From the IMG/VR virus record IMGVR_UViG_3300046678_000420, positions 25,948 through 89,947 of that record: DNA of 64,000 nucleotides. One strand, 5' to 3'. The DNA is from a virus (lineage: Duplodnaviria; Caudoviricetes). The position numbers and the translations under genes are program-made. The notes below the pieces were generated by a model that saw only the letters and a list, made by a program, of their open reading frames with translations, ran no database searches and was not told the DNA's origin. Of this stretch, positions 2,318 to 61,961 are shown piece after piece. The first letter of the stretch is position 1. Every line of letters begins with the position of its first letter.

Positions 2318-2676
2318 GTGACATCAGGGTTGAGCTGGACTTGGAACCGGCGGCCCTCGCCGGGATCTACCGGTGGCACGGCTGGCCCCTGGCCCTATGC
2401 GAGGAATCCACGCCTACGGCCGACGACATCACGGAGCTGGTGACACACGTGGTGACGGAGGTTGCCGCCGTTGACCCCGGCTCGTACGTCTCCCTCGGCC
2501 GGGTGCTGGCCATCCGAGACACGGAGATGCCGCACGCAATCGAGGTCGCGCTAGTCATCGGCGTGGCCTGGATCGGAGACGACGAAGACCCCGACGCTCC
2601 CGCGCCGGCGAACCGCTTTACAGACGGCGCCGCGGACTGGGGCCACGACATCCTGAACGAGGGGGAGAGCAAGTGA
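2314..2676 (+). CDS. Hypothetical phage protein
   Basis: ATGA/GTGA coupling on both sides; homolog at 47088-47447. Confidence 0.8.
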   Translation: MSDIRVELDLEPAALAGIYRWHGWPLALCEESTPTADDITELVTHVVTEVAAVDPGSYVSLGRVLAIRDTEMPHAIEVALVIGVAWIGDDEDPDAPAPANRFTDGAADWGHDILNEGESK

Positions 2677-3437
2677 GCGACTGGAAAACGATTCTGTGCC
2701 TGCCGGACTACCAGGTTCCTTACCATGACGCGAAGCTGGTCCGGACGCTGACGCGGCTGGTGGGTGACCTTCAGCCGGACACGGTCGTTCACGTCGGCGA
2801 TTTCCTCGACAGCCCGGAGCCGTCGCGCTGGTCTCGCGGCGCGGCAGGCGAGTACGCCGGGACCCTTCAGAAGTCGCTCGACCAGGCAACCGACGTCCTC
2901 ATAGATCTGCGCGTGGTCTATGACGGCCCGATCGTGCTGAAGCTCGGCAACCACGACCGACGCATTCAGGACTACGTCCGCCGGTACGCTCCGGCGCTGG
3001 CGCCGCTGCGGGCACTGGACTTCGGGCGGCTCATCGGCGCGGACCGTCTGAACGTGGAGATCTGCCACGGCGTCTACGAGGTCGCCCCCGGCTGGCTCGT
3101 CGCCCACGGCGATGAGGGCTCGTTGTCGCGGTACGCGGGCGGCACGGCCGCCGGTCTGGCCCAGAAGTTCGGCAAGAGCGTGGTCTGTGGGCACACGCAC
3201 CGCGCGGGCCTGATCCCCCACTCGACCGGCTACAACGGCCGGACCCGGTCCCTGTTCGGGATGGAGGTCGGGCACGCCATGGACCTGAAGCGCGCGGGCT
3301 ACCTGAAGGCGGGGGCAGCCAACTGGCAACAGGCTTTCGGCGTCTTGAGGACCAACGGCAAGACCACCATCCCGACCCTTGTCCCTGTGGTTGATCGACG
3401 GTTCACCTTTGACGGTGCCGTCTACGACGTGAAGTGA
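2673..3437 (+). CDS. Calcineurin-like metallophosphoesterase
   Basis: PD.Q.PYHD, HVGDFLD, LGNHD, AHGD and CGHTHR motifs. Confidence 0.9.
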   Translation: MSDWKTILCLPDYQVPYHDAKLVRTLTRLVGDLQPDTVVHVGDFLDSPEPSRWSRGAAGEYAGTLQKSLDQATDVLIDLRVVYDGPIVLKLGNHDRRIQDYVRRYAPALAPLRALDFGRLIGADRLNVEICHGVYEVAPGWLVAHGDEGSLSRYAGGTAAGLAQKFGKSVVCGHTHRAGLIPHSTGYNGRTRSLFGMEVGHAMDLKRAGYLKAGAANWQQAFGVLRTNGKTTIPTLVPVVDRRFTFDGAVYDVK

Positions 3438-3446
3438 GGTGAGCTG

Positions 3447-4028
3447 TTGCTGACGCATGACGACTACGAGCGGGTGTCTGAGATCGTGAAGCGGGCCGCT
3501 CGGGGCCTCGCTAAGTCCTGGCCGGGCATCGACGGGGAGGACATCGAGCAAGAGATCTGGGTGGGCCTGGTCAAGGACTGGCCGAAGCTCCCGGATGATG
3601 ACGGCCTGATCCGGCATCGTGCTTGGAAGCACGGCCTGAAGTACTGCCACGACGAGCGGTATTTCTACACGCTGCGCTCGGCGGAGTGGGTCTACACCCC
3701 GAGCGAGGTACGGGCCCTGTTTCGGGACTGCTTCTTTGACCCCGTGTGGTGGGAGGACATGCCCACGAAGGAAGCGGACAACAGCCTCAAGGCCGGGGGC
3801 GTGGTCGTGCTTCTGTGGGACCTGCGGAACGTCTGGGACTCGCTGAGTGACGACCAGCGGGAGGACATCGGCCGCGTGTACCGGGATCAGGCCGAGGTGA
3901 CCTCCGCCGAGCGGAAGGCGTGTCAGAGGGCCGTTGACGTCGCCACGGAGAAGCTGAACCGGCGGATGGAGTATCAGACGCTTGTCCGCCGTGGGGTTGA
4001 CGCGGACCGGGAGGCGCTTCGAGTGTGA
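3447..4028 (+). CDS. Phage sigma-70-like factor
   Basis: Region-2-like DGEDIEQEIWV and region-4-like LSDDQREDI..ERKACQRAV; follows the phosphoesterase as in related actinophages. Confidence 0.65.
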   Translation: MLTHDDYERVSEIVKRAARGLAKSWPGIDGEDIEQEIWVGLVKDWPKLPDDDGLIRHRAWKHGLKYCHDERYFYTLRSAEWVYTPSEVRALFRDCFFDPVWWEDMPTKEADNSLKAGGVVVLLWDLRNVWDSLSDDQREDIGRVYRDQAEVTSAERKACQRAVDVATEKLNRRMEYQTLVRRGVDADREALRV

Positions 4029-4056
4029 GCCGGCCGCGAGCTGTAAAGCGAACCGC

Positions 4057-4088
4057 AGGCCCCTGGTCTTCTGGCCGGGGGCCTTTTG
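4057..4088 (+). terminator. Intrinsic terminator ending the replication operon
   Basis: AGGCCCCTGGTC-TTCT-GGCCGGGGGCCT followed by a T-run, right after the motif copy at 4040. Confidence 0.7.
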
Positions 4089-4169
4089 GCGCTCTTGACG
4101 AGACTCCGTTCCGCCGTAAGGCTCCATAGGAGCGCAACATTCGACAACCTTTGAGGCAGGGGACAGACA

Positions 4170-4388
4170 GTGCGCCTAACATTCATCGGCAAGGACCCGG
4201 AGTCGAATCCGAACGGCTCACCAACCGTGTACCGCACGGACCGAGGAACCTGGGTGGTGCAGGGCTGGGACATCACTGATCCCGCTGTGCTTGCTCAGAT
4301 GCACATCCCCGAGGGTGAGACGTGCGTGGAGATCCCGGATCGGATGCTTCAGTTCTTCAGTCAGGAAGGTCATGGAGTCGATCAGTGA
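4170..4388 (+). CDS. Small conserved actinomycete protein of the DUF6879/XRE module
   Basis: MRLTFIGKDPES..GSPTVYRTD..WVVQGW; homolog at 48943-49161. Confidence 0.75.
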   Translation: MRLTFIGKDPESNPNGSPTVYRTDRGTWVVQGWDITDPAVLAQMHIPEGETCVEIPDRMLQFFSQEGHGVDQ

Positions 4389-4890
4389 GGGTGAGTTCGG
4401 CGAGCTGCTGACCACGTTCAAGCGCGACGCGATCCACCTCGAACAGCGCGACGCCTACGGCACTGAGATTGAGCTGCCGTACATGGCGAAGTGGGCGGCC
4501 GGGGAGCCGGATGACCTGGCGTGGCTCAACGAGTGGTGCGAGTCGCTGCGGGAGCATGTTGCGGCTGGCCGGTCGGTGCGGCGTGCCCGCATCGTCTCCG
4601 AACCTTTGAGCGACTATCAGCGCTGGTCGTACAGCATCGCTCAGCCGATGGTCGATGCTGGCGAAGATATCCGTTGGGTTCCTCGCCGCCGGGTGTCGTC
4701 GCTTGCCCTGCCGGGTAACGACTACTACCTGTTTGACGATCGACTTGCCGTGTTCCTGATCTACGCGGGTAACGGGCTCGCGGTGGACCGGCTTGCTTCC
4801 ACTGATCCCGCCGACCTGAAGCTATGCCGGTCGGCGTTTGAAGAGGTGTGGAAGCTGTCCATCCCGCACCGTGACTACGAAGCCGTCTAG
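4372..4890 (+). CDS. DUF6879-family protein
   Basis: HLEQRDAY..W..W..RARIVSEPLSDYQRW..DYYLFDD pattern; start set from homolog 49145-49663. Confidence 0.75.
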   Translation: MESISEGEFGELLTTFKRDAIHLEQRDAYGTEIELPYMAKWAAGEPDDLAWLNEWCESLREHVAAGRSVRRARIVSEPLSDYQRWSYSIAQPMVDAGEDIRWVPRRRVSSLALPGNDYYLFDDRLAVFLIYAGNGLAVDRLASTDPADLKLCRSAFEEVWKLSIPHRDYEAV

Positions 4891-5740
4891 CGCCGCGCAG
4901 CAAGCGCGCGAGGCACTTGGGGTTCGTCTGCGCGATCTACGCAAAGACGCTGACCTGACTGCCCGTGCGCTTGCTGCGGAGACCGGCATTCACTACACGC
5001 GGATCAGCAAGGTTGAGAACGGTTCCGTCTCCCCTTCTGAGCACGAGGTTCATACCTGGTGCCGGGCGTGCGGGGCTGAGGACCAGGACCCGGACCTTAT
5101 CGCCACTCTGCGGACCGTTGAGTCAGCCTACGTCGAGCACCGACGCCAGAGCCGATCAGGCATGAAGCGCGTTCTTGGGGCGCACACGCCCCAGCTCTAC
5201 GAACAGACCCAGGTGTTCCGGATCTATGAACACAACGTCGTGCCGGGGCTGTTCCAGACGGCTGACTACACCCGGTCCATGCTGGAGTTCTGGATCAGGT
5301 TTCTCAACACCCCGAACGACGTTGACGAAGCGCTGGCCGTCCGCGTTCAGCGTCAACAGGTGATCTACCGGCCGGATAAGCGTTTCTTCGTCGTGTTGGA
5401 AGAGCAGGCGCTTCGGACCTGGTTCGGGAGCGCGGAAGTCCAGGCCGGTCAGCTCGACCGGTTGTTGACTGTGATGTCCCTGCCGAACGTGTCGCTAGGG
5501 ATCATTCCCCTGATGATTGAGCGTGACGGTGTGGCATCCGCCGGATTCTGGATCTTCGATGATCTGCTTGTCGCGTTGGAGACTCCGACAGCTGGTATCG
5601 AGGTGACTCGCCCTCAGGAGATCGGGCTCTATGCCCGCATGTTCGATCACATGAAGGCTTCCGCCGTCTATGGCGCAAGTGCCCGTGCGCTAATCACACG
5701 AGCGTCCGAGGAGACCATGAACGGTCGCGAGTACGGGTGA
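4871..5740 (+). CDS. XRE helix-turn-helix / DUF5753 regulator
   Basis: LGVRLRDLRKDA..ISKVENG HTH; VPGLFQTADY and VLEEQAL DUF5753 motifs. Confidence 0.88.
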   Translation: MTTKPSSAAQQAREALGVRLRDLRKDADLTARALAAETGIHYTRISKVENGSVSPSEHEVHTWCRACGAEDQDPDLIATLRTVESAYVEHRRQSRSGMKRVLGAHTPQLYEQTQVFRIYEHNVVPGLFQTADYTRSMLEFWIRFLNTPNDVDEALAVRVQRQQVIYRPDKRFFVVLEEQALRTWFGSAEVQAGQLDRLLTVMSLPNVSLGIIPLMIERDGVASAGFWIFDDLLVALETPTAGIEVTRPQEIGLYARMFDHMKASAVYGASARALITRASEETMNGREYG

Positions 5741-5802
5741 CCGATAGGCAACATCTGTCAACTTCGTAGACGCGGTCTCAGTGCCCTTCTTAACGTCGGA
5801 CC

Positions 5803-6129
5803 ATGACGCAGAGGAGCGCGAGCGCACCCATGAGTGAAGAGAACCCCACCCCCCGCCGCGTCCTAGCGCTGCTTGCGGAGGAACCCTCCTATCTGCCCAT
5901 GCGGACGGTACGGCTTCCTGACGGGCTGACCCTCGGCGAGGTCACCTCGGGCGACCTGATCGGGGTTGAAGGCCGCTGGTATCCGGTCCTCGGGTGCACG
6001 TCGGTCAACGGATGGGTCACGGTGGACCGGTCCGGCGCAACGAATCTGACGGCGCACGAGTCCACGCCTGTTTACCTCGCGCGGAGGGAGCCGGTCCGTG
6101 AGCCCGTGGCCCAGGGCCAGCGGCCATGA
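5803..6129 (+). CDS. Hypothetical protein
   Basis: ORF conserved at 50576-50902; ATGA coupling to the next gene. Confidence 0.7.
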   Translation: MTQRSASAPMSEENPTPRRVLALLAEEPSYLPMRTVRLPDGLTLGEVTSGDLIGVEGRWYPVLGCTSVNGWVTVDRSGATNLTAHESTPVYLARREPVREPVAQGQRP

Positions 6130-6365
6130 GCGGGACGGCAGCAACCGCGAGAGCGCAGGACCTTAAGGCCGGTCAACGCGTCTACATAGGCCGCCTTGGT
6201 CGCTGGTGCACCCTGTCCGCTGATGCCAAGACGCACCGTCTCTCACGGAATCTGATCCGGCTGGAGTTCGCCGAGATACCGAACGAGTACCGCAGGGTCA
6301 ACGAAGCGGTACAGGTCCGGCCGCCGCGCCGAAGGGTCGGCGCCGACGCCGGCCGCGAGCTGTAA
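6126..6365 (+). CDS. Hypothetical protein
   Basis: Homolog at 50899-51138; the stop codon lies inside a motif core. Confidence 0.7.
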   Translation: MSGTAATARAQDLKAGQRVYIGRLGRWCTLSADAKTHRLSRNLIRLEFAEIPNEYRRVNEAVQVRPPRRRVGADAGREL

Positions 6366-6465
6366 AGCAAGCCGCGGCCTTTTGAACCACCCGCCTGCTC
6401 GTGACTTCCCCCCGTGGCGCGGGCGGGCGGGTGTTCCACAACCACCCCCGAAGGAACGAAGCCCG

Positions 6466-6645
6466 TTGAGCGAGAAGAACGACCCGCCGAACATCAGCGG
6501 GATTCCGCAGTTGGACGCCTACCTTGCAACGCGCCTGACCCCCGAGGAGCAGGAGCAGATGCGGCAGACCTACGTCGATGGAGACCCGGAGGGCAGTCAG
6601 GCGATCGTGAACAAGGCGAACATCCGCAACGAGAACAAGAAGTAG
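6466..6645 (+). CDS. Small hypothetical protein
   Basis: TTG start after GAAGGA; near-identical at 51239-51418. Confidence 0.6.
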   Translation: MSEKNDPPNISGIPQLDAYLATRLTPEEQEQMRQTYVDGDPEGSQAIVNKANIRNENKK

Positions 6646-6649
6646 AGCC

Positions 6650-6838
6650 GTGGTTTACGAACCGCCGCCGAATCCTGACGACTGGATCTGTGACGCACTG
6701 CCCTCGCGCCGCACGTCGGAGTCGTCGGACACGCGTCACGCGGCCCTTTACCGCCAGGAAGAGCCGATCACGTGGGATGCGATACGCGCTGCACGGCCCG
6801 TCTACGAACCGCGCCACGGCGGCCTGACAGCCCGCTAG
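6650..6838 (+). CDS. Small hypothetical protein
   Basis: Homolog at 51423-51611 with the same length. Confidence 0.55.
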   Translation: MVYEPPPNPDDWICDALPSRRTSESSDTRHAALYRQEEPITWDAIRAARPVYEPRHGGLTAR

Positions 6839-6870
6839 TCATGCATGTCCCTCCGAGCAAGGGAGAGCAC

Positions 6871-7419
6871 ATGAACAGGAAAGTAATCGCGACGCTGATC
6901 CTTGCCGGACTGGTCATCGTCAGCACGAGCGGAGCGTCCGGCGGATGCGGGAGTGGCGGCGACGGAGGCACATCCGCGCCTGCGGTGGGGGCGGGTGGCG
7001 AACAGTCCGCTCCGAGCGAGGAGCACAGTTCAGCCGAGGAGACGGCCGACGAGCCGAGCGAGCCACCGGACGAGGGACACGACCCGTGCAACGCCCACCT
7101 GTCGCCGATCACAGTAGGTCACAAGGTCTCAGCAACCCTCACGGTCGGGCCGTGCGCCGACCAGCCCGAGGAGTACAGCGGGTCTTTGACGCTCCAGTAC
7201 GGGACCGGCGAACTTCCCCACCTGAAGTGGACGACAGCGACTCTCATCCCGATCTACAGCGAGAACGCGACGCAACCGATCTCGGCTCCGTGCCAAGATG
7301 CGTACTGGGTGGTCGTGTACGACGCGGCCGGACGTGACGCCCACGGGAAAGACTTCCAGAGCACTCACAGCGTCTTCCTCGAAGAGAACCAATTCCCACG
7401 GAAGGCGAACTGTCCATGA
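6871..7419 (+). CDS. Putative secreted protein or lipoprotein
   Basis: Signal-like MNRKVIATLILAGLVIV..GASGGC, acidic linker, Cys-containing beta domain; RBS GGGAG; homolog at 51689-52243. Confidence 0.7.
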   Translation: MNRKVIATLILAGLVIVSTSGASGGCGSGGDGGTSAPAVGAGGEQSAPSEEHSSAEETADEPSEPPDEGHDPCNAHLSPITVGHKVSATLTVGPCADQPEEYSGSLTLQYGTGELPHLKWTTATLIPIYSENATQPISAPCQDAYWVVVYDAAGRDAHGKDFQSTHSVFLEENQFPRKANCP

Positions 7420-7832
7420 GCGAAGAACCCGCCGCCCCCGTTGCGGCGCTTGTGGGCGTCCCCGCCGGTACAGGTAGCGCCTTCATCCCCGACTACAAGT
7501 TCCCGGGGGCCACGCGCCTGCGCACGGCGGTCGGTTCAACTCTCCTGTTCGCGCTCGTCAACCATCCCCGAGCCACTGACCCCGAAGTCCGAGAGCGGTA
7601 CCAGCGCCACCGGCACGACTTCCAGGACACAGAGCTTGTGGTGAACGGCGAGACCTATCCGGCGGTCGAAGTCCAAGACGCCGAGATCGGCATCCGCGTT
7701 CGCGCTGCGGCTGTGAACGGCCTCACTGTGGTCACCACGTTCCCGGTTGATCAGAACGTCCCCGGCGTCCGCGTGACGTGGCCGGAGAGTGGCGACGCCG
7801 ACCGGTCTCCTGACGCCGGCCAAGCGCTGTAA
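7416..7832 (+). CDS. Hypothetical protein
   Basis: ATGA-coupled to the lipoprotein gene; homolog at 52240-52644. Confidence 0.7.
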   Translation: MSEEPAAPVAALVGVPAGTGSAFIPDYKFPGATRLRTAVGSTLLFALVNHPRATDPEVRERYQRHRHDFQDTELVVNGETYPAVEVQDAEIGIRVRAAAVNGLTVVTTFPVDQNVPGVRVTWPESGDADRSPDAGQAL

Positions 7833-7938
7833 AGCGCGCGTGTGAGCCGTACCCCACACGCGCTATGCTGATCCCTGCTTCCTCGTTCAACGCTTTCCTT
7901 TCGAGGTGTGTTGTGACTTGCTGGCAATCGAGTTGAGG

Positions 7939-7979
7939 AAGCGCAGAGCCCCCGCCCTAGTGGCGGGGGTTTTGCTTTT
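7939..7979 (+). terminator. Intrinsic terminator
   Basis: GCCCCCGCC-CTAGT-GGCGGGGGT with a T-rich tail; conserved near 52750-52790. Confidence 0.75.
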
Positions 7980-8003
7980 CACCTGCGGGTTCGGAATTAT
8001 CTA

Positions 8004-8041
8004 TAACTCGCTTGACGCAAGGTGGGTGGAGGTCTTATCGT
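8004..8041 (+). promoter_or_regulatory. Sigma70/HrdB-like promoter with extended motif
   Basis: TAACTCGC-TTGACG-N18-TATCGT; unit 2 has TTGACG-N18-TATTGT at 52821. Confidence 0.75.
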
Positions 8042-8083
8042 TTTGCCATGCCCGAGGGGGCATGGAAACGGACGGTTGCCAGC

Positions 8084-8188
8084 ATGTCTAAGTCGTTCAG
8101 CAAGGGCGAGCGTAAGACCTCCGGAAAGTCTGATCGGGAGTTCCGCCGGATGCGGAAGACGGCCCGGAAGGCGGAGGGGGAAAAGTGA
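8084..8188 (+). CDS. 34-aa basic peptide (MSKSFSKGERKTSGKSDREFRRMRKTARKAEGEK)
   Basis: Below the ORF-track cutoff; GTGA-coupled to the next gene; conserved at 52893-52997 with mostly synonymous changes. Confidence 0.7.
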   Translation: MSKSFSKGERKTSGKSDREFRRMRKTARKAEGEK

Positions 8189-8910
8189 AGAAATCCCCGA
8201 AGGACAAGAAGAAGTCGGTCGCGCGGTACCCGGTCGCGTTGGTGTTCACGCTGCTCGCGGCCGGTGTGTACGTGAACGTGCGGCACGGTGCGGCTCACGG
8301 CAAGCCGCTGAAGCTGTACCCGATTGAGGCCGGGGTCATATCGGCGCTGCCAACGCTGATCACCGCTGCGAGCATTCACCTCCTGGTCCTCACGTTCGAG
8401 GGGAAGCGACGCCCCGCAAAGCTCCACGGGTTCCTTGCCCGCCTGGGAGTTCTCGGGATCTCAGCGGCTGCGTTCCGGGTCTCGTATGACGCCTGGACCA
8501 CGGTAAGCAAGGCGGCCGGTATCCGGGGCAGCCTGAGCGGCTATCTCCCATGGATCACGGAGGGGTTCTTGGCCTTCGCGGTCTACGCGGCGTGGGTGGT
8601 GCAGATGCAGAATCGGGATGAGGAAGTCCCGGGGGAGCCTCAGGCTCCTGTCGCGCCGGTCATCCCGAACACGGTGGAAGAGATGCAAGACGAGTGGGCT
8701 AAGGAGCCCCCGCAGGCGGAGCCAATGCCCGCGCCTGCGATACCGGAACCGGAGGTAACGAGCCCTTCGGCGAGCCAGTTTCCGGGGCCCGCAGCTCCCG
8801 CCCTTCGCGGGGCCGCTGACTTCATGGCCATGGCCAACCAGGCGACGCACCCTAATACCCGCGCCTACTGGATGAAGCTTCATCACGCTCAAGGCAAGAC
8901 CCAGATCTGA
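8185..8910 (+). CDS. DUF2637-like membrane protein
   Basis: Four hydrophobic segments, AFRVSYDA..AAGI..LPW..EG pattern, Pro-rich tail. Confidence 0.65.
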   Translation: MKKSPKDKKKSVARYPVALVFTLLAAGVYVNVRHGAAHGKPLKLYPIEAGVISALPTLITAASIHLLVLTFEGKRRPAKLHGFLARLGVLGISAAAFRVSYDAWTTVSKAAGIRGSLSGYLPWITEGFLAFAVYAAWVVQMQNRDEEVPGEPQAPVAPVIPNTVEEMQDEWAKEPPQAEPMPAPAIPEPEVTSPSASQFPGPAAPALRGAADFMAMANQATHPNTRAYWMKLHHAQGKTQI

Positions 8911-8924
8911 GAGGCGCTGAACTA

Positions 8925-9293
8925 GTGGAAATCGTGATTCGACGGGTGGCTGACGACTTGGACAACACGCAGGACGCGACGGAGACCATTCCGTTCGCCT
9001 TCGACGGCATGGACCTTGAGATTGACCTCTCGGAGGCCAACGCTCTTGAGTTCCGGCTGATGATGGCGCGGTACGTCAACGCAGCCCGGCCGCGCGTGAA
9101 GAAGGCCCCGAAGGGGAAGGCCCGCAAGTCCTCCTCGGGCTACGACGTGCCGAAGGTGCGGAGGTGGTGGGGCGAGAGCTGGGAGGCGGAGGGTTTGCCG
9201 GAGCCATCGGACCGGGCCCGCATCCCGAACGCGGTCAGGGACCGGGCGATAGAGCGGGGCGTGATTGCGCCTCTTCTGCAACTGGCTGCCTGA
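8925..9293 (+). CDS. Lsr2-like protein with variant DNA-binding domain
   Basis: Lsr2 dimerisation motif DDLD..A.ETI.F..DG..LEIDLSEANA; C-terminal VRRWW..SDRARIP. Confidence 0.85.
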   Translation: MEIVIRRVADDLDNTQDATETIPFAFDGMDLEIDLSEANALEFRLMMARYVNAARPRVKKAPKGKARKSSSGYDVPKVRRWWGESWEAEGLPEPSDRARIPNAVRDRAIERGVIAPLLQLAA

Positions 9294-9301
9294 GAGACAG
9301 A

Positions 9302-9333
9302 GAACCCCCGGGGCTACGGCTCCGGGGGTTTTT
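9302..9333 (+). terminator. Intrinsic terminator between the two lsr2 genes
   Basis: AACCCCCGGGGC-TACG-GCTCCGGGGGTT followed by a T-run. Confidence 0.75.
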
Positions 9334-9457
9334 CGTGCTCTCACTCTGTGCCGGCCAGGTGCTTTAAAGCCGGTTGGATGGATGATTCGGGTTGCTTGGA
9401 TGTGCGCGCGTCGGGCATCATCACCGACGACAGGCTTTCTACAGAATGGTTGGACCA

Positions 9458-9799
9458 GTGGCCAAGCGGGTTATTGAGGTTTTCAACGACGACTTGGACG
9501 GCACCGAGGGCGCCAGCACCGTGAAGTTTGGTCTTGACGGCAAGTCGTATGAGATCGACCTCGGGTCGAAGAACGAAAAGGCGCTCAGGAAGGTGCTGGA
9601 AAAGTACGTGGCGGCAGCCACCCCGGTACGGGCGAGCGATGCAGGTCCGGGGCGCCGTAAGTACGGCACCGGCCCTGTACGCCGGGACACGAAGCACATC
9701 CGTGAGTGGCTGCGCGGTCAGGGCGTCGAGATCAGCGACCGAGGCCGTATCCCCACGGACCTCATGCAGCGCTACCAGGCTGCGAACCCCGGCCGCTGA
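9458..9799 (+). CDS. lsr2: Lsr2 nucleoid-associated protein / xenogeneic silencer homolog
   Basis: DDLDG..TVKFGLDGKSYEIDL and IREW..G.EISDRGRIP canonical Lsr2 motifs; start uncertain. Confidence 0.92.
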   Translation: MAKRVIEVFNDDLDGTEGASTVKFGLDGKSYEIDLGSKNEKALRKVLEKYVAAATPVRASDAGPGRRKYGTGPVRRDTKHIREWLRGQGVEISDRGRIPTDLMQRYQAANPGR

Positions 9800-9810
9800 A
9801 GGCGCGCGTT

Positions 9811-9836
9811 AAGGGCCAGCCTTCGGGCTGGCCCTT
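9811..9836. terminator. Bidirectional terminator
   Basis: AAGGGCCAGCC-TTCG-GGCTGGCCCTT perfect stem between convergent genes; conserved in unit 2. Confidence 0.8.
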
Positions 9837-9906
9837 CGTCATGCCGGCGGGGAGCTTTACAGCTCCCCGCGGTTCGTCTGTGGCGCTGCCAGCGGTCAGA
9901 CAGAAG

Positions 9907-10077
9907 CTACTTTGTCGCTGTCATCTTCGTGGCTGTGTCCTGGTCGGCCGCGTCCTCGGCTCTTTCGGCTTCAAGGATCTTCGTCAGCTTGCTTCTGGCT
10001 CGCTTGAGGTGCCGCTTGCTGCCCCTGGAGCTTATGAGGAGATCCGGGTTCGGCTCGAACGGCGGGAGTTTGGCCAT
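9907..10077 (-). CDS. 56-aa hypothetical protein, unit 1 only
   Basis: ATG preceded by AGGAG; MAKLPPFEPNPDLL...TATK. Confidence 0.55.
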   Translation of the reverse strand: MAKLPPFEPNPDLLISSRGSKRHLKRARSKLTKILEAERAEDAADQDTATKMTATK

Positions 10078-10105
10078 GGGGTGCTCCTACGTGGGCGTTT
10101 GGTAC

Positions 10106-10744
10106 TCACAGCTTAAGTGCGGTCACCGACACGAGCAAGCCTAGTCCTACCGACAGAAAGAGGGCGGACCATCCTAGAAGCAGGCTCTTGAGCCCGACAT
10201 CCAGCTCATCGAGTTGGTAGGCCCCAACGGTGGTATCGATGATCAACAACAGTGCATCATCTGGATCTTTATCAGCCAGGTCACGCAGCTCACGGGGCCC
10301 TTCAGTCACTCTAGACCCACGAAGAAAGAACAACACTACCGCAGCAATTAAACCGGACAGGGCCGCTGCTGCTTGGGCCGCCAACGCAAGATTTCCGGGG
10401 TCAGCGGCTTGCGCAATAAAGCCAACCACAAGGCCATCGAAACCAAGCAGTAAACCAGCTTTGGCATCGATTGCCCGCGTATATTTTTCCTGGGCCTTGA
10501 CGCGCATAGCTATTGCTTGTCGAACCACGTCTAGCGCGGGGTACTTGGGCGGGTCAGGAGCGGGCGCTGGTTCACCAGGTCCTATGGTCGGGGCTGCGCA
10601 CATGGATATTATCCCACCCTGTTGATTGTTCTCGCGCCACTTGGAAGGCCGCCCGAGGCTGCCACAAAGGCAGCCGTTCGGGGGACGACGTGGGTTTTGC
10701 ATGTGTGGAGGCGTCGCCCGCACGGTCGCATGAATGAACCCCAC
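10106..10744 (-). CDS. Low-GC membrane protein, resembles the Pycsar-effector (DUF5706) architecture
   Basis: IDAKAGLLLG TM1, TM2, loop, K..L..S..FL..GL TM3; lower GC; two TTA codons; start uncertain. Confidence 0.5.
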   Translation of the reverse strand: MGFIHATVRATPPHMQNPRRPPNGCLCGSLGRPSKWRENNQQGGIISMCAAPTIGPGEPAPAPDPPKYPALDVVRQAIAMRVKAQEKYTRAIDAKAGLLLGFDGLVVGFIAQAADPGNLALAAQAAAALSGLIAAVVLFFLRGSRVTEGPRELRDLADKDPDDALLLIIDTTVGAYQLDELDVGLKSLLLGWSALFLSVGLGLLVSVTALKL

Positions 10745-10826
10745 CAGCCGCTACGTCAGCGGGCCGGAGTGCAGGTTGGCGTTGGTCGTTGCATCGTGAA
10801 GCGATCGCCTACGTCAAGGAGGACCA

Positions 10827-11291
10827 GTGGCTACAGCTGGCGGGAACGATATCGCAACCCTCAATGACAAGCTCCGCCGAAAGTCGGCCAAAATGCCGGA
10901 TCTGCTTCGTGAAGTCTTGTGGTTGGTGTTCATCGTTGCAGTGCCATATTACGCGCTTGTAATAAAGCACGGTTGGGGTGAATCGGTGCGTAATGGTGAC
11001 CTCTTCTTGTTTAATATAACGGCGCTGGCAGCAGTCCTCTTTGAATGGTTGGTAAGTAAACCACCAAGTTTTCCAGAGTTTCTCCGTCCGTCATATTTCC
11101 TCTTTTTGGGGGTCATCGGCTTTGGGGCACTTGGATGGACTGTCTATCTCTTCGCCGATTCACCATTGCCGCATTCGCCACGAGAGGTCCAAATATTCGT
11201 TGCGATCGGATTTGCGTTAATTATGCCGATTCATAGAATTGCAAAACGGGAGCCAGGTGCCGAGGGCGCCGAACCGGAGGAAACAAGCTAA
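10827..11291 (+). CDS. Low-GC multi-pass membrane protein, unit 1 only
   Basis: RBS AAGGAGG, about four hydrophobic segments, AT-rich codons. Confidence 0.7.
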   Translation: MATAGGNDIATLNDKLRRKSAKMPDLLREVLWLVFIVAVPYYALVIKHGWGESVRNGDLFLFNITALAAVLFEWLVSKPPSFPEFLRPSYFLFLGVIGFGALGWTVYLFADSPLPHSPREVQIFVAIGFALIMPIHRIAKREPGAEGAEPEETS

Positions 11292-11301
11292 GCTAGAGCA
11301 G

Positions 11302-11958: not shown

Positions 11959-11999
11959 CGGGGATGCAGAAGGCCCCGCCGGAGCGGGGCCTCAGGGGG

Positions 12000-12179: not shown

Positions 12180-12298
12180 CCGGCGCCCTTGAGGAACACC
12201 GCGCCGAGGAGCAGCATCCCGACCTCTGCGCAGAGAATCGCGACGAACCAGAAAACCCAGACAACGAGGAAGTACGCCCACGGGGGCAGGTCCCGCAC
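12176..12298 (-). CDS. 40-aa membrane peptide
   Basis: MRDLPPWAYFLVVWVFWFVAILCAEVGMLLLGAVFLKGAG; ATGA overlap with the next gene; conserved at 57304-57426. Confidence 0.6.
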   Translation of the reverse strand: MRDLPPWAYFLVVWVFWFVAILCAEVGMLLLGAVFLKGAG

Positions 12299-52644: not shown

Positions 52645-52892
52645 AGCGCGCGTGTGAGCCGTACCCCACACGCGCTATGCTGGCCCTGCTTCCCGCGCCT
52701 TCCTAGCCTTTCGGCCGTGTGGGTAACTTGCTGGCAACCGAGGGGAAGCGCAGAACCCCCGCCCTAGTGGCGGGGGTTTTCTGCTTTCTACCTGCGGGTT
52801 AAGAATTCTCTATAACTCACTTGACGCAAGATAGCTGCGGGCCTTATTGTTTTGCCATGCCCGAGGGGGCATGGAAACGGACGGTTGCCAGC

Positions 52893-53730: not shown

Positions 53731-54099
53731 ATGGAAATCGTGATTCGACGGGTGGCTGACGACTTGGACAACACGCAGGACGCGACGGAGACCATTCCGT
53801 TCGCCTTCGACGGGATGGACCTTGAGATTGACCTCTCGGAGGCCAACGCTCTTGAGTTCCGGCTGATGATGGCGAGGTACGTGAACGCGGCCCGGCCCCG
53901 CGTGAAGAAGGCCCCGAAGGGGAAGGCCCGCAAGTCCGCGTCTGGCTATGACGTGCCGAAGGTGCGGGCCTGGTGGTTCGATGAGTGGGAAACGTTGGGC
54001 CTGCCGGAGGCGTCGGACCGAGCCCGTATCCCCAATGTGGTCAGGGACGCAGCGATAGACCACGGCGTGATCCCGCCGCTTCTGCAACTGGCTGCCTGA
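53731..54099 (+). CDS. Variant Lsr2-like protein (unit 2)
   Basis: Homolog of 8925-9293; SDRARIP. Confidence 0.85.
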   Translation: MEIVIRRVADDLDNTQDATETIPFAFDGMDLEIDLSEANALEFRLMMARYVNAARPRVKKAPKGKARKSASGYDVPKVRAWWFDEWETLGLPEASDRARIPNVVRDAAIDHGVIPPLLQLAA

Positions 54100-54264
54100 G
54101 AGACAGGGAACCCCCGTGGCTTCGGCTTCGGGGGTTTCTTCGTGCTCTCACACTGTGCCGGCCAGGTGCTTTAAAGGTAGTGGCATGGGTGATTCGGGTT
54201 GCTTGGATGTGCGTGGGTCGGGCATCATCACCGACGACAGGCTTTCTACAGAATGGTTGGACCA

Positions 54265-54606
54265 GTGGCGAAGCGGGTTATCGAAGTTTTTCACGACGAC
54301 TTGGACGGCGCCGAGGGTGCCAGCACCGTGAAGTTTGGTCTTGACGGCAAGTCGTATGAGATCGACCTCGGGTCGAAGAACGAAAAGGCGCTCAGGAAGG
54401 TCCTGGAAAAGTACGTGGCAGCGGCCACCCCGGCACGGGCGAGCGACTCGGCGCCGGGGCGCCGGAAGTACGGCACCGGCCCGGTTCGCCGGGACACGAA
54501 GCACATTCGTGCGTGGCTTCGCGGTCAGGGTGTCGAGATCAGCGACCGGGGCCGCATCCCTACGGACCTCATGGACCGCTACCAGGCGGCGAACCCGGGT
54601 CGCTGA
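54265..54606 (+). CDS. lsr2: Lsr2 homolog (unit 2)
   Basis: SDRGRIP; homolog of 9458-9799. Confidence 0.92.
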   Translation: MAKRVIEVFHDDLDGAEGASTVKFGLDGKSYEIDLGSKNEKALRKVLEKYVAAATPARASDSAPGRRKYGTGPVRRDTKHIRAWLRGQGVEISDRGRIPTDLMDRYQAANPGR

Positions 54607-55116: not shown

Positions 55117-55749
55117 TTACCAGAGCCCGTCTTGGCCTACGGCTTCGGCGTGGCGCTCCAGCTTGATTGGGACCATGAGGCCCCGGAAGTAAGGCCCATA
55201 CTTCACGAGTATCGGTTCCTCGGGGTCACGAATCATCCAAGCGGCCCGGCGTTCGCTCTTGTCCGACTTCACCAGCCGGAAGCGGGACGTGAGGCCCATG
55301 TCCAACACGAACACGCTCGACGGGTCCTCGTAGCGCTCGAACAATGCGGCCAGGCCGCGCCAGGCGGCATCCGGGGTCATGCCGGTGGCGTCCTCCACGG
55401 CCTCACGGGACGAGCCGATCTGTAGCACCAGCCCGTCACCGGGGAACCAGGACAGCACGACGTCTTGCTTCGGGTGCTGGCGACAAAACGAGGTCACGGC
55501 ATCGAGCCCTTCGCGGGGGATCTCGATCCTGACGGTTCCGCGGTTCGCTTTAAAGCCTTCGGCCGGCGTCCAGTCGTACGCGGCGGCGTACGGGTCGCCC
55601 CCGAGGATCGTCACGCCGTCGGCGTCCACGGTGAAAAGGACGCTGCGGATGGTGGCGTTCTTCTTGTGGACGTGGGCGACGTTGCCCGCAACGCGGCAAA
55701 GCGCGGCGGCGTCCATGGTCCAGGTGGCTTGAGGCTCGCTCAGGGCCAT
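55117..55749 (-). CDS. Possible beta-clamp-like protein (unit 2)
   Basis: Diverged homolog of 11302-11958. Confidence 0.45.
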   Translation of the reverse strand: MALSEPQATWTMDAAALCRVAGNVAHVHKKNATIRSVLFTVDADGVTILGGDPYAAAYDWTPAEGFKANRGTVRIEIPREGLDAVTSFCRQHPKQDVVLSWFPGDGLVLQIGSSREAVEDATGMTPDAAWRGLAALFERYEDPSSVFVLDMGLTSRFRLVKSDKSERRAAWMIRDPEEPILVKYGPYFRGLMVPIKLERHAEAVGQDGLW

Positions 55750-56407: not shown

Positions 56408-56441
56408 CCCTAGCCCGCCCTCTGTAAAGCTCCCCGCCGGC

Positions 56442-57739: not shown

Positions 57740-57931
57740 TCAGGCTGCCCTTCCGTAGTTGTAACCCTGGTCGTAGACGTAGAAAGCCTCACGGATACGA
57801 GCCGACGCGGAGCGGAGTCCTTCCGGGTTGTCCTCGGAGATGGACTGAAGGCGCATCACAGCGACCATGTGTTCCGGGTACTGCGAATACTGGGTGATGG
57901 CCTGTAGAGCCGCGTCGAGCGTGTATCCCAC
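57740..57931 (-). CDS. Hypothetical protein (unit 2)
   Basis: Homolog of 12612-12803. Confidence 0.7.
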   Translation of the reverse strand: MGYTLDAALQAITQYSQYPEHMVAVMRLQSISEDNPEGLRSASARIREAFYVYDQGYNYGRAA

Positions 57932-58903
57932 TGCCTAACCTCCCGGGGGGTGGTGGTGTGCTGGCTCCGTCACTGTATCTCCCTTGATGCAGATGCGTCA
58001 ATGGAGTTATGCCACTGCCCCCGGCGGGGGCCCCAAGGGGGACCCATCGAGTCCGCGACATGGGCCGCGATTCGCGGACCGATTCAGGGTCCAGATTCAA
58101 GGCCGCGTTTCCGTGCCCATTTCTGAGGCCGTTCCTGAGTCCGTTTTCGAGGCCGTTTCGGGGGCCATTTCCGGGGCCACCTTGTAGTGGTGGCCGTTCC
58201 TGGGTGTCGCCCGGGGGAGCAGACCCGGCCACGCAAGCGCGGAGCCGTCGCCGTAGTGGCTCCCGCTGGGGCGTGCGTCGGTGCGTCACCTGAGGCCGTG
58301 TCCTGGGGCTTCGGTTCCGCGGGCTGCTTTACAGCTCCTCGCCGGCAAAGCTGCCGGGACTTCGTCGACGAACCGCGGCCTGCTTTACAGCTCGCGGCCG
58401 GCACGGCATGCGCGTGCGGCAGCTCGGTTACGCGACGGTCGTGCGCCGTGCTCTGTTGAGCCTGCCGAGCGGCAGCAGGAGCCCGTCCAGGCCGGGCCCG
58501 AAAAATGACCGCGTCGGCCATGGGTCGCTGGTTGATGGCCCTACTTGCAAAAAACTTTGTGCTTGGCTGCAACCCCGGCGGGCGCGCACGAGGGGCTACA
58601 AACTGCCCTCGGCCCGGTTGGCGCAGATCTCCCATGCTCGCCCAGCAATTCCCGGTGATGTCACGGGATGTCCGTTTAGGGGCATGGGGGTGCCTTTGTG
58701 GGGTCGGCGGAAAGCAATTTCGGGCAGTCCTTACGCGGCCCCTTTCGGGCCGTTGTTCTACCGCGTCTGACCAGCATTCCACTCACGTCCGGGCAGGTCA
58801 AACCCTGTTTTCATACCTCCCTTGACACGCTTTACAGCGGTCGTGCATCGTCTTGCCTCGCCAGCAAGACACCGAACACCGGAACGACCGAAAGGGAATG
58901 CAC

Positions 58904-59983: not shown

Positions 59984-60001
59984 GCGGAGAAGGGTTTAGC
60001 C

Positions 60002-60403
60002 ATGAAGGCCTGGAATTACGACGCACCCAAGATGGTGCTTGACGTCCGCGTGGATTACTCGACTGTGCTTATCGCGCCGGACGGTCACGAGATGTTCGGC
60101 CGGAATCAGGTCCGGCCCTATGAGCTTCGCGAGATCCGCGAAACGATGGCGGAGGCGCTGACTCCCAAGGGCTACCGGCTCAAGGTTGAGCGGCGCGTGA
60201 GTACGTGGTGGGTTCCCGCGTGCTGGTACTGCCAGGCTCGCCCGTGTGCGATCGACTTCGACTGTGACGGCCCTTACCGCACGGTCACCTGTGACACGGA
60301 GCAGTGCCGCCAGGGCCACAACCCGGATAACTCCGATTGGGTCGCGGGCAAGGGGCCGCTTTGGGGCCCGGAGCATCCCGAATGGGGCGCGATAGCGGCC
60401 TAG
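60002..60403 (+). CDS. Hypothetical protein (unit 2)
   Basis: Shorter homolog of 14862-15368. Confidence 0.7.
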   Translation: MKAWNYDAPKMVLDVRVDYSTVLIAPDGHEMFGRNQVRPYELREIRETMAEALTPKGYRLKVERRVSTWWVPACWYCQARPCAIDFDCDGPYRTVTCDTEQCRQGHNPDNSDWVAGKGPLWGPEHPEWGAIAA

Positions 60404-60544
60404 CCGCAGCGACGAGGGGCTAAGGCGTGCTGCCTTAGCCCCTTTCGCTTGCCACGAGCCTAACTCCCTTGACGCATGCTTTAAAGCCTGGCAAGATCTG
60501 GCCTGCCAGCAAGACACCATCCGCACTAACCGAAAGGCAAGACC

Positions 60545-61228
60545 GTGAGCATCCACAACGGCAGCTATCGCCCGAACGCTAAGGGCGCGACCTCGCTCCG
60601 CGACGCTCGCCCGTTGTACGTCGGAAACGACCGGGTCATCGTTGAGGTTTACCCGTGGGAGGGTGGCCAGTGGATGACCATCTTTGTCGGGTGCAAGGCG
60701 GCTTTTGAGGGCCCGATTCCCGCTGGCATTGAGTACGACGCGGAGTTCTACGCGTTCATCCATGAAAGCGTTGAGGCCTTTGCCGCTAAGCGGGCTAAGG
60801 CGGAGGCGGCTAAGGCGGAGCCGGTTAAGGCTGCGACCCGGAAGCACGGAAGGCGGACCATGAGCGATTACGAAACCCGGTTCGGATTCATCTACGCGAC
60901 GTTCACCACCATCGGGCAGGCCTCCCACGAAGCATGCGTGAGCGTCTACATAGACGACGCGACGCGTCGCCCCCACACCTGGCCTTCGTTCTGCGTCGCC
61001 CTGGCGGACGAGACGCCGGAATCGGTCCGCCTCGCGCTCCGCACTGCCACTGAGCGCATGGGCCGGGAATACGGTGTCGCGGGCATGACGTGGAACCCCT
61101 CCTATGAGGGATTCCGAGGTTGCCAGTGGAACCCGGACACGCTCCGCCCCGTGAACGGTCGGGCTCTCCGGGACAGCATCGCGATTCCGGCCGTCCGGCG
61201 TCCGGCGCACGCTAAGGCGGTTGCGTAA
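60545..61228 (+). CDS. Hypothetical protein (unit 2)
   Basis: Homolog of 15506-16192. Confidence 0.75.
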   Translation: MSIHNGSYRPNAKGATSLRDARPLYVGNDRVIVEVYPWEGGQWMTIFVGCKAAFEGPIPAGIEYDAEFYAFIHESVEAFAAKRAKAEAAKAEPVKAATRKHGRRTMSDYETRFGFIYATFTTIGQASHEACVSVYIDDATRRPHTWPSFCVALADETPESVRLALRTATERMGREYGVAGMTWNPSYEGFRGCQWNPDTLRPVNGRALRDSIAIPAVRRPAHAKAVA

Positions 61229-61440
61229 TGGCGTGGGTGGCGTTCTTCGCAGTGGTCGCACTCGGCTTCTACGGCACGCGGGCAAAGGCGAAGCAAGCGG
61301 AGCGGATCACCGCTCAAGAGCGGGCACGCGAGCAAGCGGCGAAGTGCGCGGAGGCGCGGCTACTCAAGGAAGCCGAGGAAATCAGGGCGCGTCAACCGGC
61401 GCCCCGACGCGGACGGCCCCGGAAGACCACAACCCCATAG
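61228..61440 (+). CDS. Small membrane-anchored protein (unit 2)
   Basis: Homolog of 16192-16404. Confidence 0.75.
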   Translation: MAWVAFFAVVALGFYGTRAKAKQAERITAQERAREQAAKCAEARLLKEAEEIRARQPAPRRGRPRKTTTP

Positions 61441-61619
61441 CGCGCAACGGTAGGGCCCTCTTCGGAGGGCCCTTTTTTCGTGCCCTGGTACAGCCAAAAG
61501 GAGAAACGGCCGGAGAGCGATTCTAAGGCTAGGCCGGCGTGGGTTTGCTTGCCCGGATACCCAAGGTGCGAGAAAGGCCCCTCACGGGGCTGTGAGAGGC
61601 CTTCCCGGGGGTGTTCTGT

Positions 61620-61886
61620 CTAGCGGCCCATCGCGCCGAAAACAAAATGCGGCGTAGTCGAGACAGGCTTAACGGACATGGCAATGAGTCCGCGTGTTTC
61701 CCACATGAACGACCCGGAGAACCGCTCGAACGCTTCCGCCTGCGCCTCCTGGACGTTGTCGGCCGACAGGTAGAGGGTCGTAGCCAGCCGTCCATAAGAG
61801 TCGGACGTAGCGGCAAGACCGGGGAACGGCTCCGGCGCGTTCCCAGAGTCGATGTCCCACACGGCCGTCACGGCGTAGTCAGTCAT
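61620..61886 (-). CDS. Hypothetical protein (unit 2)
   Basis: Homolog of 16583-16852. Confidence 0.7.
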   Translation of the reverse strand: MTDYAVTAVWDIDSGNAPEPFPGLAATSDSYGRLATTLYLSADNVQEAQAEAFERFSGSFMWETRGLIAMSVKPVSTTPHFVFGAMGR

Positions 61887-61961
61887 GCAGCCATCTTGCC
61901 AGGAGCGCAGAGAGGCCCACCCCCAATAAGGGGATGGGCCCACACGCGCTTTACAGCGCGC

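Follow-up and report, generated by a model that had tools for sequence, protein, structure and literature searches.

Three-part putative repressor sites dispersed across a group of uncultivated actinobacterial phages

Why would a phage keep the same short quasi-palindrome, flanked at fixed distances by GC-rich modules, at about 25 places across its genome, both inside and between genes? We examined a window of 64,000 nucleotides, positions 25,948 to 89,947 of the 89,947-bp IMG/VR record IMGVR_UViG_3300046678_000420. A first-pass annotation of this window had listed at least 41 copies of a GCTKTAMAGC core, 35 of them with CCGGC exactly 5 nt away on one side and many with GCGG 5 or 7 nt away on the other. 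That observation was confirmed. The window holds 35 exact cores, whereas shuffled sequences gave a mean of 0.15 and at most 2. Seven further cores with one mismatch carry the flank, giving 42 copies, 35 of which have CCGGC exactly 5 nt from the core. However, the window is not one genome. The record consists of two ~45-kb phage genomes (units A and B), 89% identical over 91%, joined head to tail with a 38-bp end repeat, so that the 41 copies represent about 1.4 genomes' worth. The true load is about 23 to 29 sites per genome; each genome has 23 to 26 exact cores, or 26 to 33 when one-mismatch sites are counted.

To define the site, we compared five related genomes (units A and B and three others), which share 80 to 89% ANI and each hold 22 to 26 cores. 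G precedes CCGGC in 99% of sites although it was not selected for; the left module is therefore GCCGGC. Of 122 distinct oriented sites from the five genomes, 42 have CCGCGG 3 nt beyond the core, 17 have it 5 nt beyond, and 51 lack it, which accounts for the GCGG noted previously at 5 or 7 nt. Sites were then chosen in one genome and read in the others (147 comparisons). Orthologous sites differ by 1% in GCCGGC, 1 to 5% at fixed core positions, and 4 to 10% in CCGCGG, compared with 14 to 26% in the spacers and about 20% in the flanks. The same holds inside genes (2.9% against 13%), which answers the question, posed beforehand, of whether intragenic copies are under synonymous constraint. Sites are lost by point change and not by clean indels, with one indel in the 147 comparisons. 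Together, these data indicate that all three modules are under purifying selection, inside and outside genes, with freely drifting spacers. The full pattern is not a chromosomal motif: it gave 8 single hits in 185,579 species genomes, an indirect form of the host-chromosome test because the host is unidentified.

The dispersed sites are placed preferentially, although not exclusively, at gene ends. About half of the tripartite cores are not fully inside a CDS, against 17 to 20% noncoding DNA (p 1e-3 to 1e-5 per genome). As the first-pass annotation claimed, copies lie after or across stop codons: the core starts 9 to 11 nt after the upstream stop or supplies the TAA itself (cores at 6359, 7826, 9361, 51132, and 52638). 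Sites abut the stop of the sigma-like gene at 4029–4060 (+, unit A) and 48800–48831 (+), the TerS stop at 19425–19456 (−), and stops at 29854–29885 (−) and 38785–38816 (−); the copy at the same place as the latter in unit A has the opposite polarity. The core TAA is the stop at 6348–6379 (+), for an ORF ending at 6365, at 7815–7846 (+; no CCGCGG), at 51121–51152 (+), and at 52627–52658 (+), the last followed by a terminator-like hairpin at 52752. Further sites lie between the two Lsr2 genes (9350–9381, +, unit A; 54157–54188, +, one core mismatch), at the convergent end of the early operon (9843–9874, +, unit A only), upstream of a winged-HTH (wHTH) gene (20368–20399, +; no CCGCGG), between that gene and TerL (21421–21452, −), between leftward genes (56410–56441, −; one core mismatch), and 2 nt after a stop about 400 nt upstream of the candidate repressor gene (41706–41737, −). 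Two tandem sites occupy a noncoding ori-like region in each unit, at 13183–13214 and 13240–13271 (both −) in unit A and at 58315–58346 and 58371–58402 (both −), the latter pair 56 bp apart.

Intragenic tripartite sites are found at 2604–2635 (+; one core mismatch), inside the leftward 210-aa gene (11724–11755, −, unit A; 55536–55567, −), inside the 220-aa gene between portal and capsid (25074–25105, −; called a protease in the first-pass annotation, but not annotated as such here), at 27570–27601 (−; no CCGCGG) and 28168–28199 (+; CCGCGG at +5), in the tape-measure gene (33017–33048, +; 33140–33171, +, one core mismatch), in the 1253-aa tail gene (34703–34734, +; one core mismatch), at 37482–37513 (+) and 38050–38081 (−; one core mismatch), in the serine integrase gene (41153–41184, +), in the exonuclease gene (43818–43849, −; one core mismatch), and in the early region at 44584–44615 (+) and 47375–47406 (+).

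A second class of sites carries the core without hexamers. Four of these lie within early promoters, where TTGACR is followed by 17 to 18 nt containing the core, then cAnnnT or TAnnnT, and then a conserved leader, GCCAGCAAGACAC. In unit B, promoter P1 spans 58822–58872 (+), with TTGACA, the core at 58829–58838 in the spacer, and CATCGT; promoter P2 spans 60469–60517 (+), with the core at 60478–60487 between TTGACG and CAAGAT and the same leader. Their unit A counterparts are P1 at 13691–13741 (+; core 13698–13707) and P2 at 15430–15478 (+; core 15439–15448). A simple promoter scan did not call these promoters, but they are conserved in all five genomes and, P1 in variant form, in a more distant relative (G006), which keeps the core and the promoters but lacks the GC hexamers. 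A third class consists of core-only sites in the conserved context CACGC-core-GCGYCTAYAGCTCCGAGAA, at 16913–16922 in unit A, 60 nt upstream of a leftward gene, and at 61948–61957 in unit B. One other core-only copy (1027–1036) lies inside a gene of unit A and is also present in genome G001.

We next asked which phage protein might read these sites. The gene proposed by the first-pass annotation, at 42104–42607, is taken here as 42140–42607 (+), encoding 155 aa; a TTG at 42104 would give 167 aa. An AlphaFold2 model (pLDDT 86; 93.5 for the C-terminal domain alone) predicts an N-terminal HTH, a linker, and a Stoperator-like domain. The only strong PDB match is 7R6R/7TZ1, the cluster A2 mycobacteriophage immunity repressor. 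Homologs are present in all five motif-bearing genomes and in G006, but the family is tiny (8 database hits), so that the model rests on 11 sequences. The gene stands alone between the integrase and the early genes, with an upstream promoter-like site at 42018–42046 (+; TTGTCA-17-TAGAGT, a consensus match only) and a terminator-like hairpin (12 pairs plus a T run) just after it at 42628–42656 (+). This is where R4-like Streptomyces phages carry their stoperator repressor (PMC10276819). G006 keeps, along with the core, the invariant H-x-P-A-A-R-x-L-R motif of the second domain, whereas its HTH recognition helix differs and its genome lacks the hexamers.

These results support the interpretation of the first-pass annotation, that the motif is a three-part recognition site for a phage protein, probably this repressor, in an operator/stoperator network of unusual architecture. 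We consider it somewhat more likely than not that the motif is the site set of the phage's own immunity repressor, a distant relative of the cluster A (L5-type) repressor encoded at 42140–42607. Selection on the three modules, their placement, and the predicted repressor fold rest on the analysis itself; that this protein is the binder, how many copies bind (the first-pass annotation proposed a multimer), and any effect on transcription are inferred. In the geometry we propose, the 30-bp site would comprise two monomer-sized sites of about 12 to 14 bp in inverted order, [GCCGGC-N5-GCT] KTAM [AGC-N3/5-CCGCGG]. The invariant Stoperator-domain motif would read a core half-site, and the more variable HTH would read the outer GC hexamer one helical turn away, about 10.5 bp from the center of the hexamer to the center of the half-core. 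Several features fit this view poorly. Cluster A sites are 13 bp, asymmetric, and bound by a monomer, whereas the core here is a 10-bp palindrome whose half-sites are too close for two domains on one face. The two outer hexamers differ in sequence, and GCCGGC never occurs on both sides. Promoter copies have no hexamers, although in cluster A both domains are needed for binding (PMC9283540). By site family, orientation relative to transcription is only 18 co, 10 anti, and 10 undefined, whereas cluster A sites are almost all one way (PMC6550527), and a test of whether anti-oriented sites need CCGCGG was negative (Fisher p 0.70). The phage also encodes other DNA binders: an XRE + DUF5753 protein, a 294-aa wHTH/Zn-ribbon protein found only in the hexamer-bearing clade, a sigma-like protein, and two Lsr2 proteins.

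Some of these binders could read all or part of the site. It is possible, but unlikely, that the repressor or another dimer reads the palindromic core while a second factor reads the hexamers, so that the dispersed sites would be composite assemblies with a role beyond simple repression. The leading candidate is the wHTH/Zn-ribbon protein (20512–21396), whose gene lies between TerS and TerL in a cassette bracketed by three sites; it is present in all five hexamer-bearing genomes and absent from G006, although the TerS-TerL region of G006 is present. The differences among the hexamers and core, and the promoter copies without hexamers, would fit two readers. However, the contrast rests on one genome that is only 76% complete; the wHTH protein is only 55% identical between units A and B although the hexamers are invariant; its cellular homologs in Catenulispora and Streptomyces come from genomes where the motif was not found; and annotation yielded only a weak HTH_36 match and PHROG "replication initiation" hits. 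Somewhat less likely still, a different protein such as the XRE + DUF5753 regulator (49644–50513) reads the whole site for another genome-wide task, for example compaction, looping, replication control, or late activation, and the cluster A–like protein has other targets. A short palindromic core suits a symmetric dimer better than a two-domain monomer, orientation bias is weak, the tandem sites of the ori-like region lie next to 11-bp iterons, and G006 also has an XRE homolog. Against this, no other repeated motif emerged that could serve the repressor homolog: besides the three core-bearing classes, the only recurring elements, seen in passing rather than by a dedicated motif search of the five genomes, were the promoter leader and the iterons, and a count of 10-mers in G006 gave no other candidate. 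Moreover, the core sits in the classical operator position at early promoters, and genome-wide dispersal of one site is the hallmark of this repressor family (PMC9283540, PMC6550527).

Three further readings appear more doubtful. GCCGGC and CCGCGG are targets of the NaeI and SacII types, and the hexamers might survive only where a bound protein covers them, or their methylation might tune repressor binding. With the motifs masked, CCGCGG occurs 0 to 1 times (28 to 36 expected) and GCCGGC 1 to 3 times (42 to 58 expected) in all five genomes; these are the two most depleted 6-bp palindromes in units A and B and among the most depleted in the other three genomes, and other actinomycete restriction sites (CTCGAG, GTCGAC, CTGCAG, GAGCTC) are purged as well. 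This reading assumes that the hexamers are restriction targets in the host, yet they are held at fixed distance with 1 to 10% divergence and are thus selected for and not merely tolerated, losing them would be the simpler escape, and no methyltransferase or nuclease gene was found on annotation. It is also improbable that the tripartite sites are promoters for the sigma-like protein (48218–48799), with GCCGGC and CCGCGG as −35 and −10 elements 18 bp apart and the core as an operator in the spacer. The 24-bp start-to-start spacing of the hexamers does equal that of the host-type promoters carrying the core, the sigma-like gene is present, and early-region sites point with transcription. However, about 40% of sites are inside genes, 10 of 28 site families point against transcription, CCGCGG is often missing, one site is followed at once by the terminator-like hairpin, polarity flips between units A and B at one locus, an all-G/C −10 element is unlike known sigma-70-family elements, and G006 has the sigma-like gene but no hexamers. 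Least likely, the sites are recombination junctions, miniature mobile elements, or RNA or DNA hairpins (terminators). Sites sit at gene boundaries, and BLAST breakpoints between genomes lie near them twice as often as random positions do, but no nearer than gene boundaries in general (18% against 22% within 60 nt). The 38-nt sites fold 2.4 kcal/mol better than shuffles, which is what three palindromes give by construction; copies share no spacer sequence, spacer positions next to the core do not covary to keep pairing (p 0.08–0.48), there is no Rfam match, and orthologous sites change by point substitution.

Three characterized systems invite comparison. Phage phiC31 is a ~63% G+C Streptomyces phage with a serine integrase, whose repressor binds roughly 18 dispersed 17-bp conserved inverted repeats (CIRs), some beside early promoters; that repressor is a much larger multi-isoform protein, and its sites are single palindromes without flanking modules. 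The repressor–stoperator system of Streptomyces phage R4 and the phiJoe/phiScoe phages belongs to phages with an actinomycete host other than Mycobacterium and shares a serine integrase, a repressor gene between the structural/lysis and early genes, and multiple intergenic sites (PMC10276819), but the phages studied here show no detectable sequence similarity to any isolate phage. The closest parallel is the cluster A system (L5 gp71, Bxb1, TipsytheTRex), which shares the predicted HTH and Stoperator-domain fold, about 25 sites per genome (26 in TipsytheTRex), one site in an early lytic promoter with the rest dispersed, many in short intergenic gaps, and a site number conserved among relatives. 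Several early genes have PHROG annotations (DnaB-like helicase, metallophosphoesterase, RusA, sigma-like factor), the sigma-like one finding its hits mostly in Mycobacterium phages. The present system differs from that of cluster A in its 30-bp site of three modules with free spacers, in dispersed sites carrying modules that the promoter copies lack, in its weak orientation bias, and in the purging of both GC modules from the rest of the genome. Sequence identity to the solved repressor is only 17 to 21%, and tblastn found no isolate-phage homolog.

On present evidence, these phages most likely carry a new version of the genome-wide silencing known from cluster A, an operator and stoperator-like network built on a 30-bp composite site that is itself new. 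In this view, repressor bound to the core between −35 and −10 of the early promoters would block initiation, whereas repressor bound at the ~20 dispersed sites per genome would act like a stoperator, a roadblock or silencing point placed mainly just after stop codons.

Self-comparison of the 89,947-bp IMG/VR virus record, of which the window covers bases 25948-89947, showed two units of ~45 kb in the same order, 89% identical over 91% of their length and head to tail; the record ends in a 38-bp terminal repeat. Window positions 1-18920 are the last 42% of unit A, and positions 18921-63963 are all of unit B. No host genes were seen. The ORF running off the right end of the window (63724-63999), whose counterpart precedes the TerS gene of unit B, carries what resembles, by eye, an HNH-nuclease motif. 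Three further complete or near-complete relatives were retrieved (G001, 44.4 kb with terminal repeats; G002; and G003), showing 80-86% ANI over 40-75% of their length. A unit is therefore one genome, and the record is either a chimeric assembly of two strains or a true tandem. Among isolate phages, a megablast search found no relatives, and TerL is at most 42% identical.

Unit B is a temperate siphovirus-type actinophage. In order, it carries TerS, a small cassette, TerL, portal, capsid, tape measure, tail genes, and a large serine integrase, followed by a 155-aa gene, exonuclease, DnaB-like helicase, RusA, primase, phosphoesterase, a sigma-like protein, an XRE + DUF5753 regulator, and two Lsr2 paralogues. 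A leftward gene block, an ~880-bp noncoding region, and rightward early genes follow, in that order. The Lsr2 paralogues lie in tandem (53731-54099 and 54265-54606), and only the second matches the Pfam Lsr2 DNA-binding domain; the DUF6879 + XRE/DUF5753 gene pair at 49145-50513 is of a kind common in Streptomyces chromosomes. The ~880-bp stretch (57931-58813) has no convincing gene. It contains about eight 11-bp repeats of GGCCGTTTY (58100-58185), an inverted pair of TTGAC elements (57981-58004), two tandem tripartite sites, and an A/T-rich patch; this layout is conserved in five genomes and looks like an origin of replication. At the place of window positions 38949-42033, G001-G003 lack the serine integrase and its neighbors, and G001 has a leftward gene of about 1.5 kb there. 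A more distant relative, G006 (capsid 62% identical), has a tyrosine integrase at its contig end. The integration module is therefore swapped within this clade, while the site network stays. The host was not identified from these sequences: the window has no tRNA genes, and the G006 "provirus" contig ends in a truncated tyrosine integrase with no host flank.

The core GCTKTAMAGC occurs 35 times in the window, compared with 0.15 in shuffled sequence, and seven more copies have one core mismatch together with the flank. Of these 42 copies, 35 have CCGGC exactly 5 nt away, as the first-pass annotation had claimed, and its observation is therefore confirmed and, with the comparative data below, strengthened. 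Each of the five genomes (units A and B and G001-G003) has 22-26 exact cores. Alignment of the 92 distinct, oriented, exact-core sites from these genomes gave the consensus G-CCGGC-S-R-N-R-M-GCT(G>T)TA(A>C)AGC-R-N-N-CCGCGG, in which the G preceding CCGGC is 99% conserved although it was not selected for. Among 122 distinct sites (one-mismatch cores included), CCGCGG lies 3 nt beyond the core in 42 and 5 nt beyond in 17, and is absent in 51. The fully G/C-symmetric core GCTGTACAGC never occurs among the core copies of the five genomes, although G-type half-sites make up 44% of half-sites and about 18 such cores are expected from half-site frequencies. At least one half must be GCTTT. In tripartite sites, the G-type half is next to GCCGGC in 60 cases and away from it in 23. 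Literature searches with the core sequences returned only unrelated primers, and a search on the phiC31 CIRs returned nothing.

To examine whether the sites are under selection, we picked sites in one genome and read the orthologous place in the other four, giving 147 comparisons. Differences between orthologues were 1% in GCCGGC, 1-5% at the fixed core positions, 14% at the two degenerate core positions, and 4-10% in CCGCGG, whereas the two spacers differed by 14-26% and the flanks by about 20%. The contrast holds both inside genes (2.9% against 13%) and outside them (1.0% against 26%), which is the outcome of the synonymous-constraint test that had been proposed beforehand. Sites decay by single substitutions, with one indel among the 147 comparisons. 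The full three-module pattern gave only 8 single hits when one genome from each of 185,579 prokaryote species was searched, none of them in an actinomycete. In IMG/VR, contigs with several copies came from a narrow range of sample numbers, and the five whose full records were checked are relatives of this phage. Within the limits set by an unidentified host, the motif is therefore not a host chromosomal word.

The copies fall into three classes. Tripartite sites number about 20 per genome, and about half of them are not fully inside a CDS, against 17-20% noncoding DNA. The core typically starts 9-11 nt after the upstream stop codon, so that the outer hexamer abuts the stop; in other cases the TAA of the core itself is the stop. 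Co-oriented intragenic copies nearly all use one reading frame, coding P-A-x-x-F-T/K-A, which suggests that coding constraints choose their polarity. Promoter sites number 2-4 per genome and lack the GC hexamers. They read CCCTTGACR, 1-3 nt, the core, 6-8 nt, cAnnnT or TAnnnT, about 8 nt, and then an invariant 13-nt sequence, GCCAGCAAGACAC, which is found about 8 nt after the -10 element of every core-bearing early promoter (13729-13741, 15466-15478, 58860-58872, and 60505-60517). The third class is one core in a conserved context upstream of a leftward gene (16913 and 61948). G006 keeps the promoter class, including a variant of the leader (GTCAGCAAG), and has scattered cores, but has none of the hexamer flanks.

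With the motif footprints masked, CCGCGG occurs 0-1 times per genome (28-36 expected) and GCCGGC 1-3 times (42-58 expected). This holds in all five genomes; the two hexamers are the most depleted 6-bp palindromes in units A and B and among the most depleted in the other three. In G006 they are less depleted (9 of 45 and 14 of 44 expected). Other palindromes that serve as actinomycete restriction sites are purged too (CTCGAG, GTCGAC, CTGCAG, and GAGCTC). These four and CAGCTG are strongly avoided across units A and B, G001-G003, and G006. GGGCCC and CCCGGG are depleted in G001-G003 (GGGCCC is also absent from G006) but not in units A and B, which suggests different restriction pressures on close relatives. 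Either off-target copies of the two hexamers are selected against, or restriction pressure removed every copy that is not functionally needed.

The candidate reader of the sites is encoded at 42140-42607, a gene that stands alone between the integrase and the early genes with a promoter-like site and a strong terminator-like hairpin. Its product has no Pfam or PHROG family and only 8 database relatives; a tblastn search for isolate-phage homologues gave no hit, a PDB sequence search gave nothing useful, and a wider search of IMG/VR found only the same clade. In its predicted structure, an N-terminal HTH is joined by a linker to a Stoperator domain. The protein proposed by the first-pass annotation is thus, as judged from predicted structure, a genuine, very distant member of the one repressor family known for genome-wide dispersed sites. 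In the A/T-richer noncoding gap upstream of this gene, TAGAACGCGCGTTCGA (41840-41855) is one mismatch from the actinobacterial LexA box TCGAAC-N4-GTTCGA and is the only one-mismatch hit in the window; it may be an SOS input to induction.

In cluster A mycobacteriophages, one repressor monomer covers 13 bp with its two domains in successive major grooves, and orientation relative to RNA polymerase matters. As in that system, one site type is present both in early promoters and at about 20 dispersed places per genome, although here the dispersed copies carry extra modules. The site is not a 13-bp asymmetric sequence sized for one monomer but spans about 30 bp, with a palindromic 10-bp core, GCCGGC at N5, and an optional CCGCGG at N3 or N5. 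Each half (outer hexamer, spacer, and core triplet) spans 12-14 bp, and the hexamer center lies 10.5 bp from the near half-core center on the left and 8.5 or 10.5 bp on the right. The 30-bp site therefore looks like two monomer-sized sites in inverted order around a central TA. Among 11 homologues, including that of G006, the start of the second domain (H-x-P-A-A-R-x-L-R...R) is invariant, whereas the HTH recognition helix varies. This invariance and variation among the homologues fits a second domain that reads the shared core and an HTH that reads the clade-specific hexamers. For co-variation of the site motif with the repressor sequence, there is one contrast only, G006, whose repressor is 35% identical with a different HTH helix, and which keeps the core but lacks the hexamers. 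The enrichment, the selection on the modules, and the placement of the sites are established by the sequence comparisons, and the fold of the candidate repressor by structure prediction, whereas the division of labor between the domains, binding of the sites, the number of copies bound, and any block to elongating RNA polymerase are inferred. The proposal of the first-pass annotation, a three-part recognition site in an operator/stoperator network, is supported as far as sequence and predicted structure can take it.

Several features argue against a simple transfer of the cluster A model. The two hexamers differ from each other, GCCGGC is never found on both sides, and the promoter copies lack hexamers. 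The sites are not predominantly in one orientation: by site family, 18 are co-oriented with transcription, 10 are anti-oriented, and 10 are undefined, and only the early region is consistent, with about 10 of 11 co-oriented. Polarity can flip by a few substitutions, as at the intergenic site that has opposite polarity in the two units (record position G000:C1:19950 in unit A, outside the window, and window position 38796 in unit B), where CCGCGG-N3 on one side has become CCGGC-N5 and GCCGGC on the other side has become GCTGGC. The idea that anti-oriented sites need CCGCGG to face the polymerase failed (Fisher p 0.70), and, judged by inspection of the map, orientation does not fit the direction of replication from the ori-like region.

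A second reader for the hexamers remains possible. The cassette between TerS and TerL (19496-21396) is bracketed by three motif sites and encodes a 294-aa winged-HTH/Zn-ribbon protein with a C-terminal CxxC...CxxC; it follows a stretch of uncertain strand, in which a + ORF at 19936-20361 competes with a - ORF at 19861-20352 that covers more of the relatives. The cassette is only ~55% identical between units A and B. Its absence from G006 gives the wHTH protein the presence/absence pattern that matches the hexamers, but this rests on a single contrast. Its nearest cellular homologues are in Catenulispora (48-52%), a possible hint of the host; a PDB sequence search gave nothing useful, and the ESM Atlas returned only unnamed Actinomycetota clusters. 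PADLOC defense-system models gave no hits among ten unknown proteins. A restriction- or methylation-linked role for the hexamers is not excluded but has no direct support. The sites do not behave as promoters for a phage sigma factor, because about 40% are intragenic, 10 of 28 families are antisense, and the second hexamer is missing in 51 of 122 sites. Recombination junctions are not supported, since breakpoints are no closer to sites than gene boundaries are, and miniature mobile elements are not supported, since sites are lost by point changes rather than clean indels. Structured RNA or intrinsic terminators are not supported, since spacer positions showed no covariation, no Rfam family matched, and the better folding energy of the sites comes from the palindromes themselves.

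A bolder reading, which we consider unlikely although the data do not exclude it, is that the 30-bp site is an obligate composite, in which two inverted monomer-sized sites for a cluster-A-type repressor share a palindromic center and give an orientation-independent roadblock. In this view, the two GC hexamers would be "reserved words" that the phage has removed from the remaining ~45 kb so that the repressor, or a partner protein, nucleates only at these ~20 places. To our knowledge, no phage immunity system has been described with this combination of module reuse and genome-wide word purging, and, if correct, it would show how a monomeric asymmetric-site repressor evolves into a symmetric multicopy one.

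Stoperator-type immunity, in which one repressor both shuts the early promoter and blocks transcription at dozens of sites, is known only from cluster A mycobacteriophages and R4-like Streptomyces phages, and its Stoperator domain had no structural relatives. The near-total removal of two hexamers from the genome outside the sites is a clean case of either specificity-driven or restriction-driven word avoidance, which could be separated experimentally. In practice, a 30-bp modular roadblock with its cognate 155-aa protein could become an orthogonal transcription insulator for high-G+C hosts. On the evidence of sequence and predicted structure, this uncultivated actinophage clade gives a second, very distant example of the repressor-stoperator system, differing in its composite 30-bp site and purged modules. 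Its different site grammar makes testable how the two domains divide the work, how site length and symmetry evolve, and whether orientation dependence is intrinsic to the mechanism.
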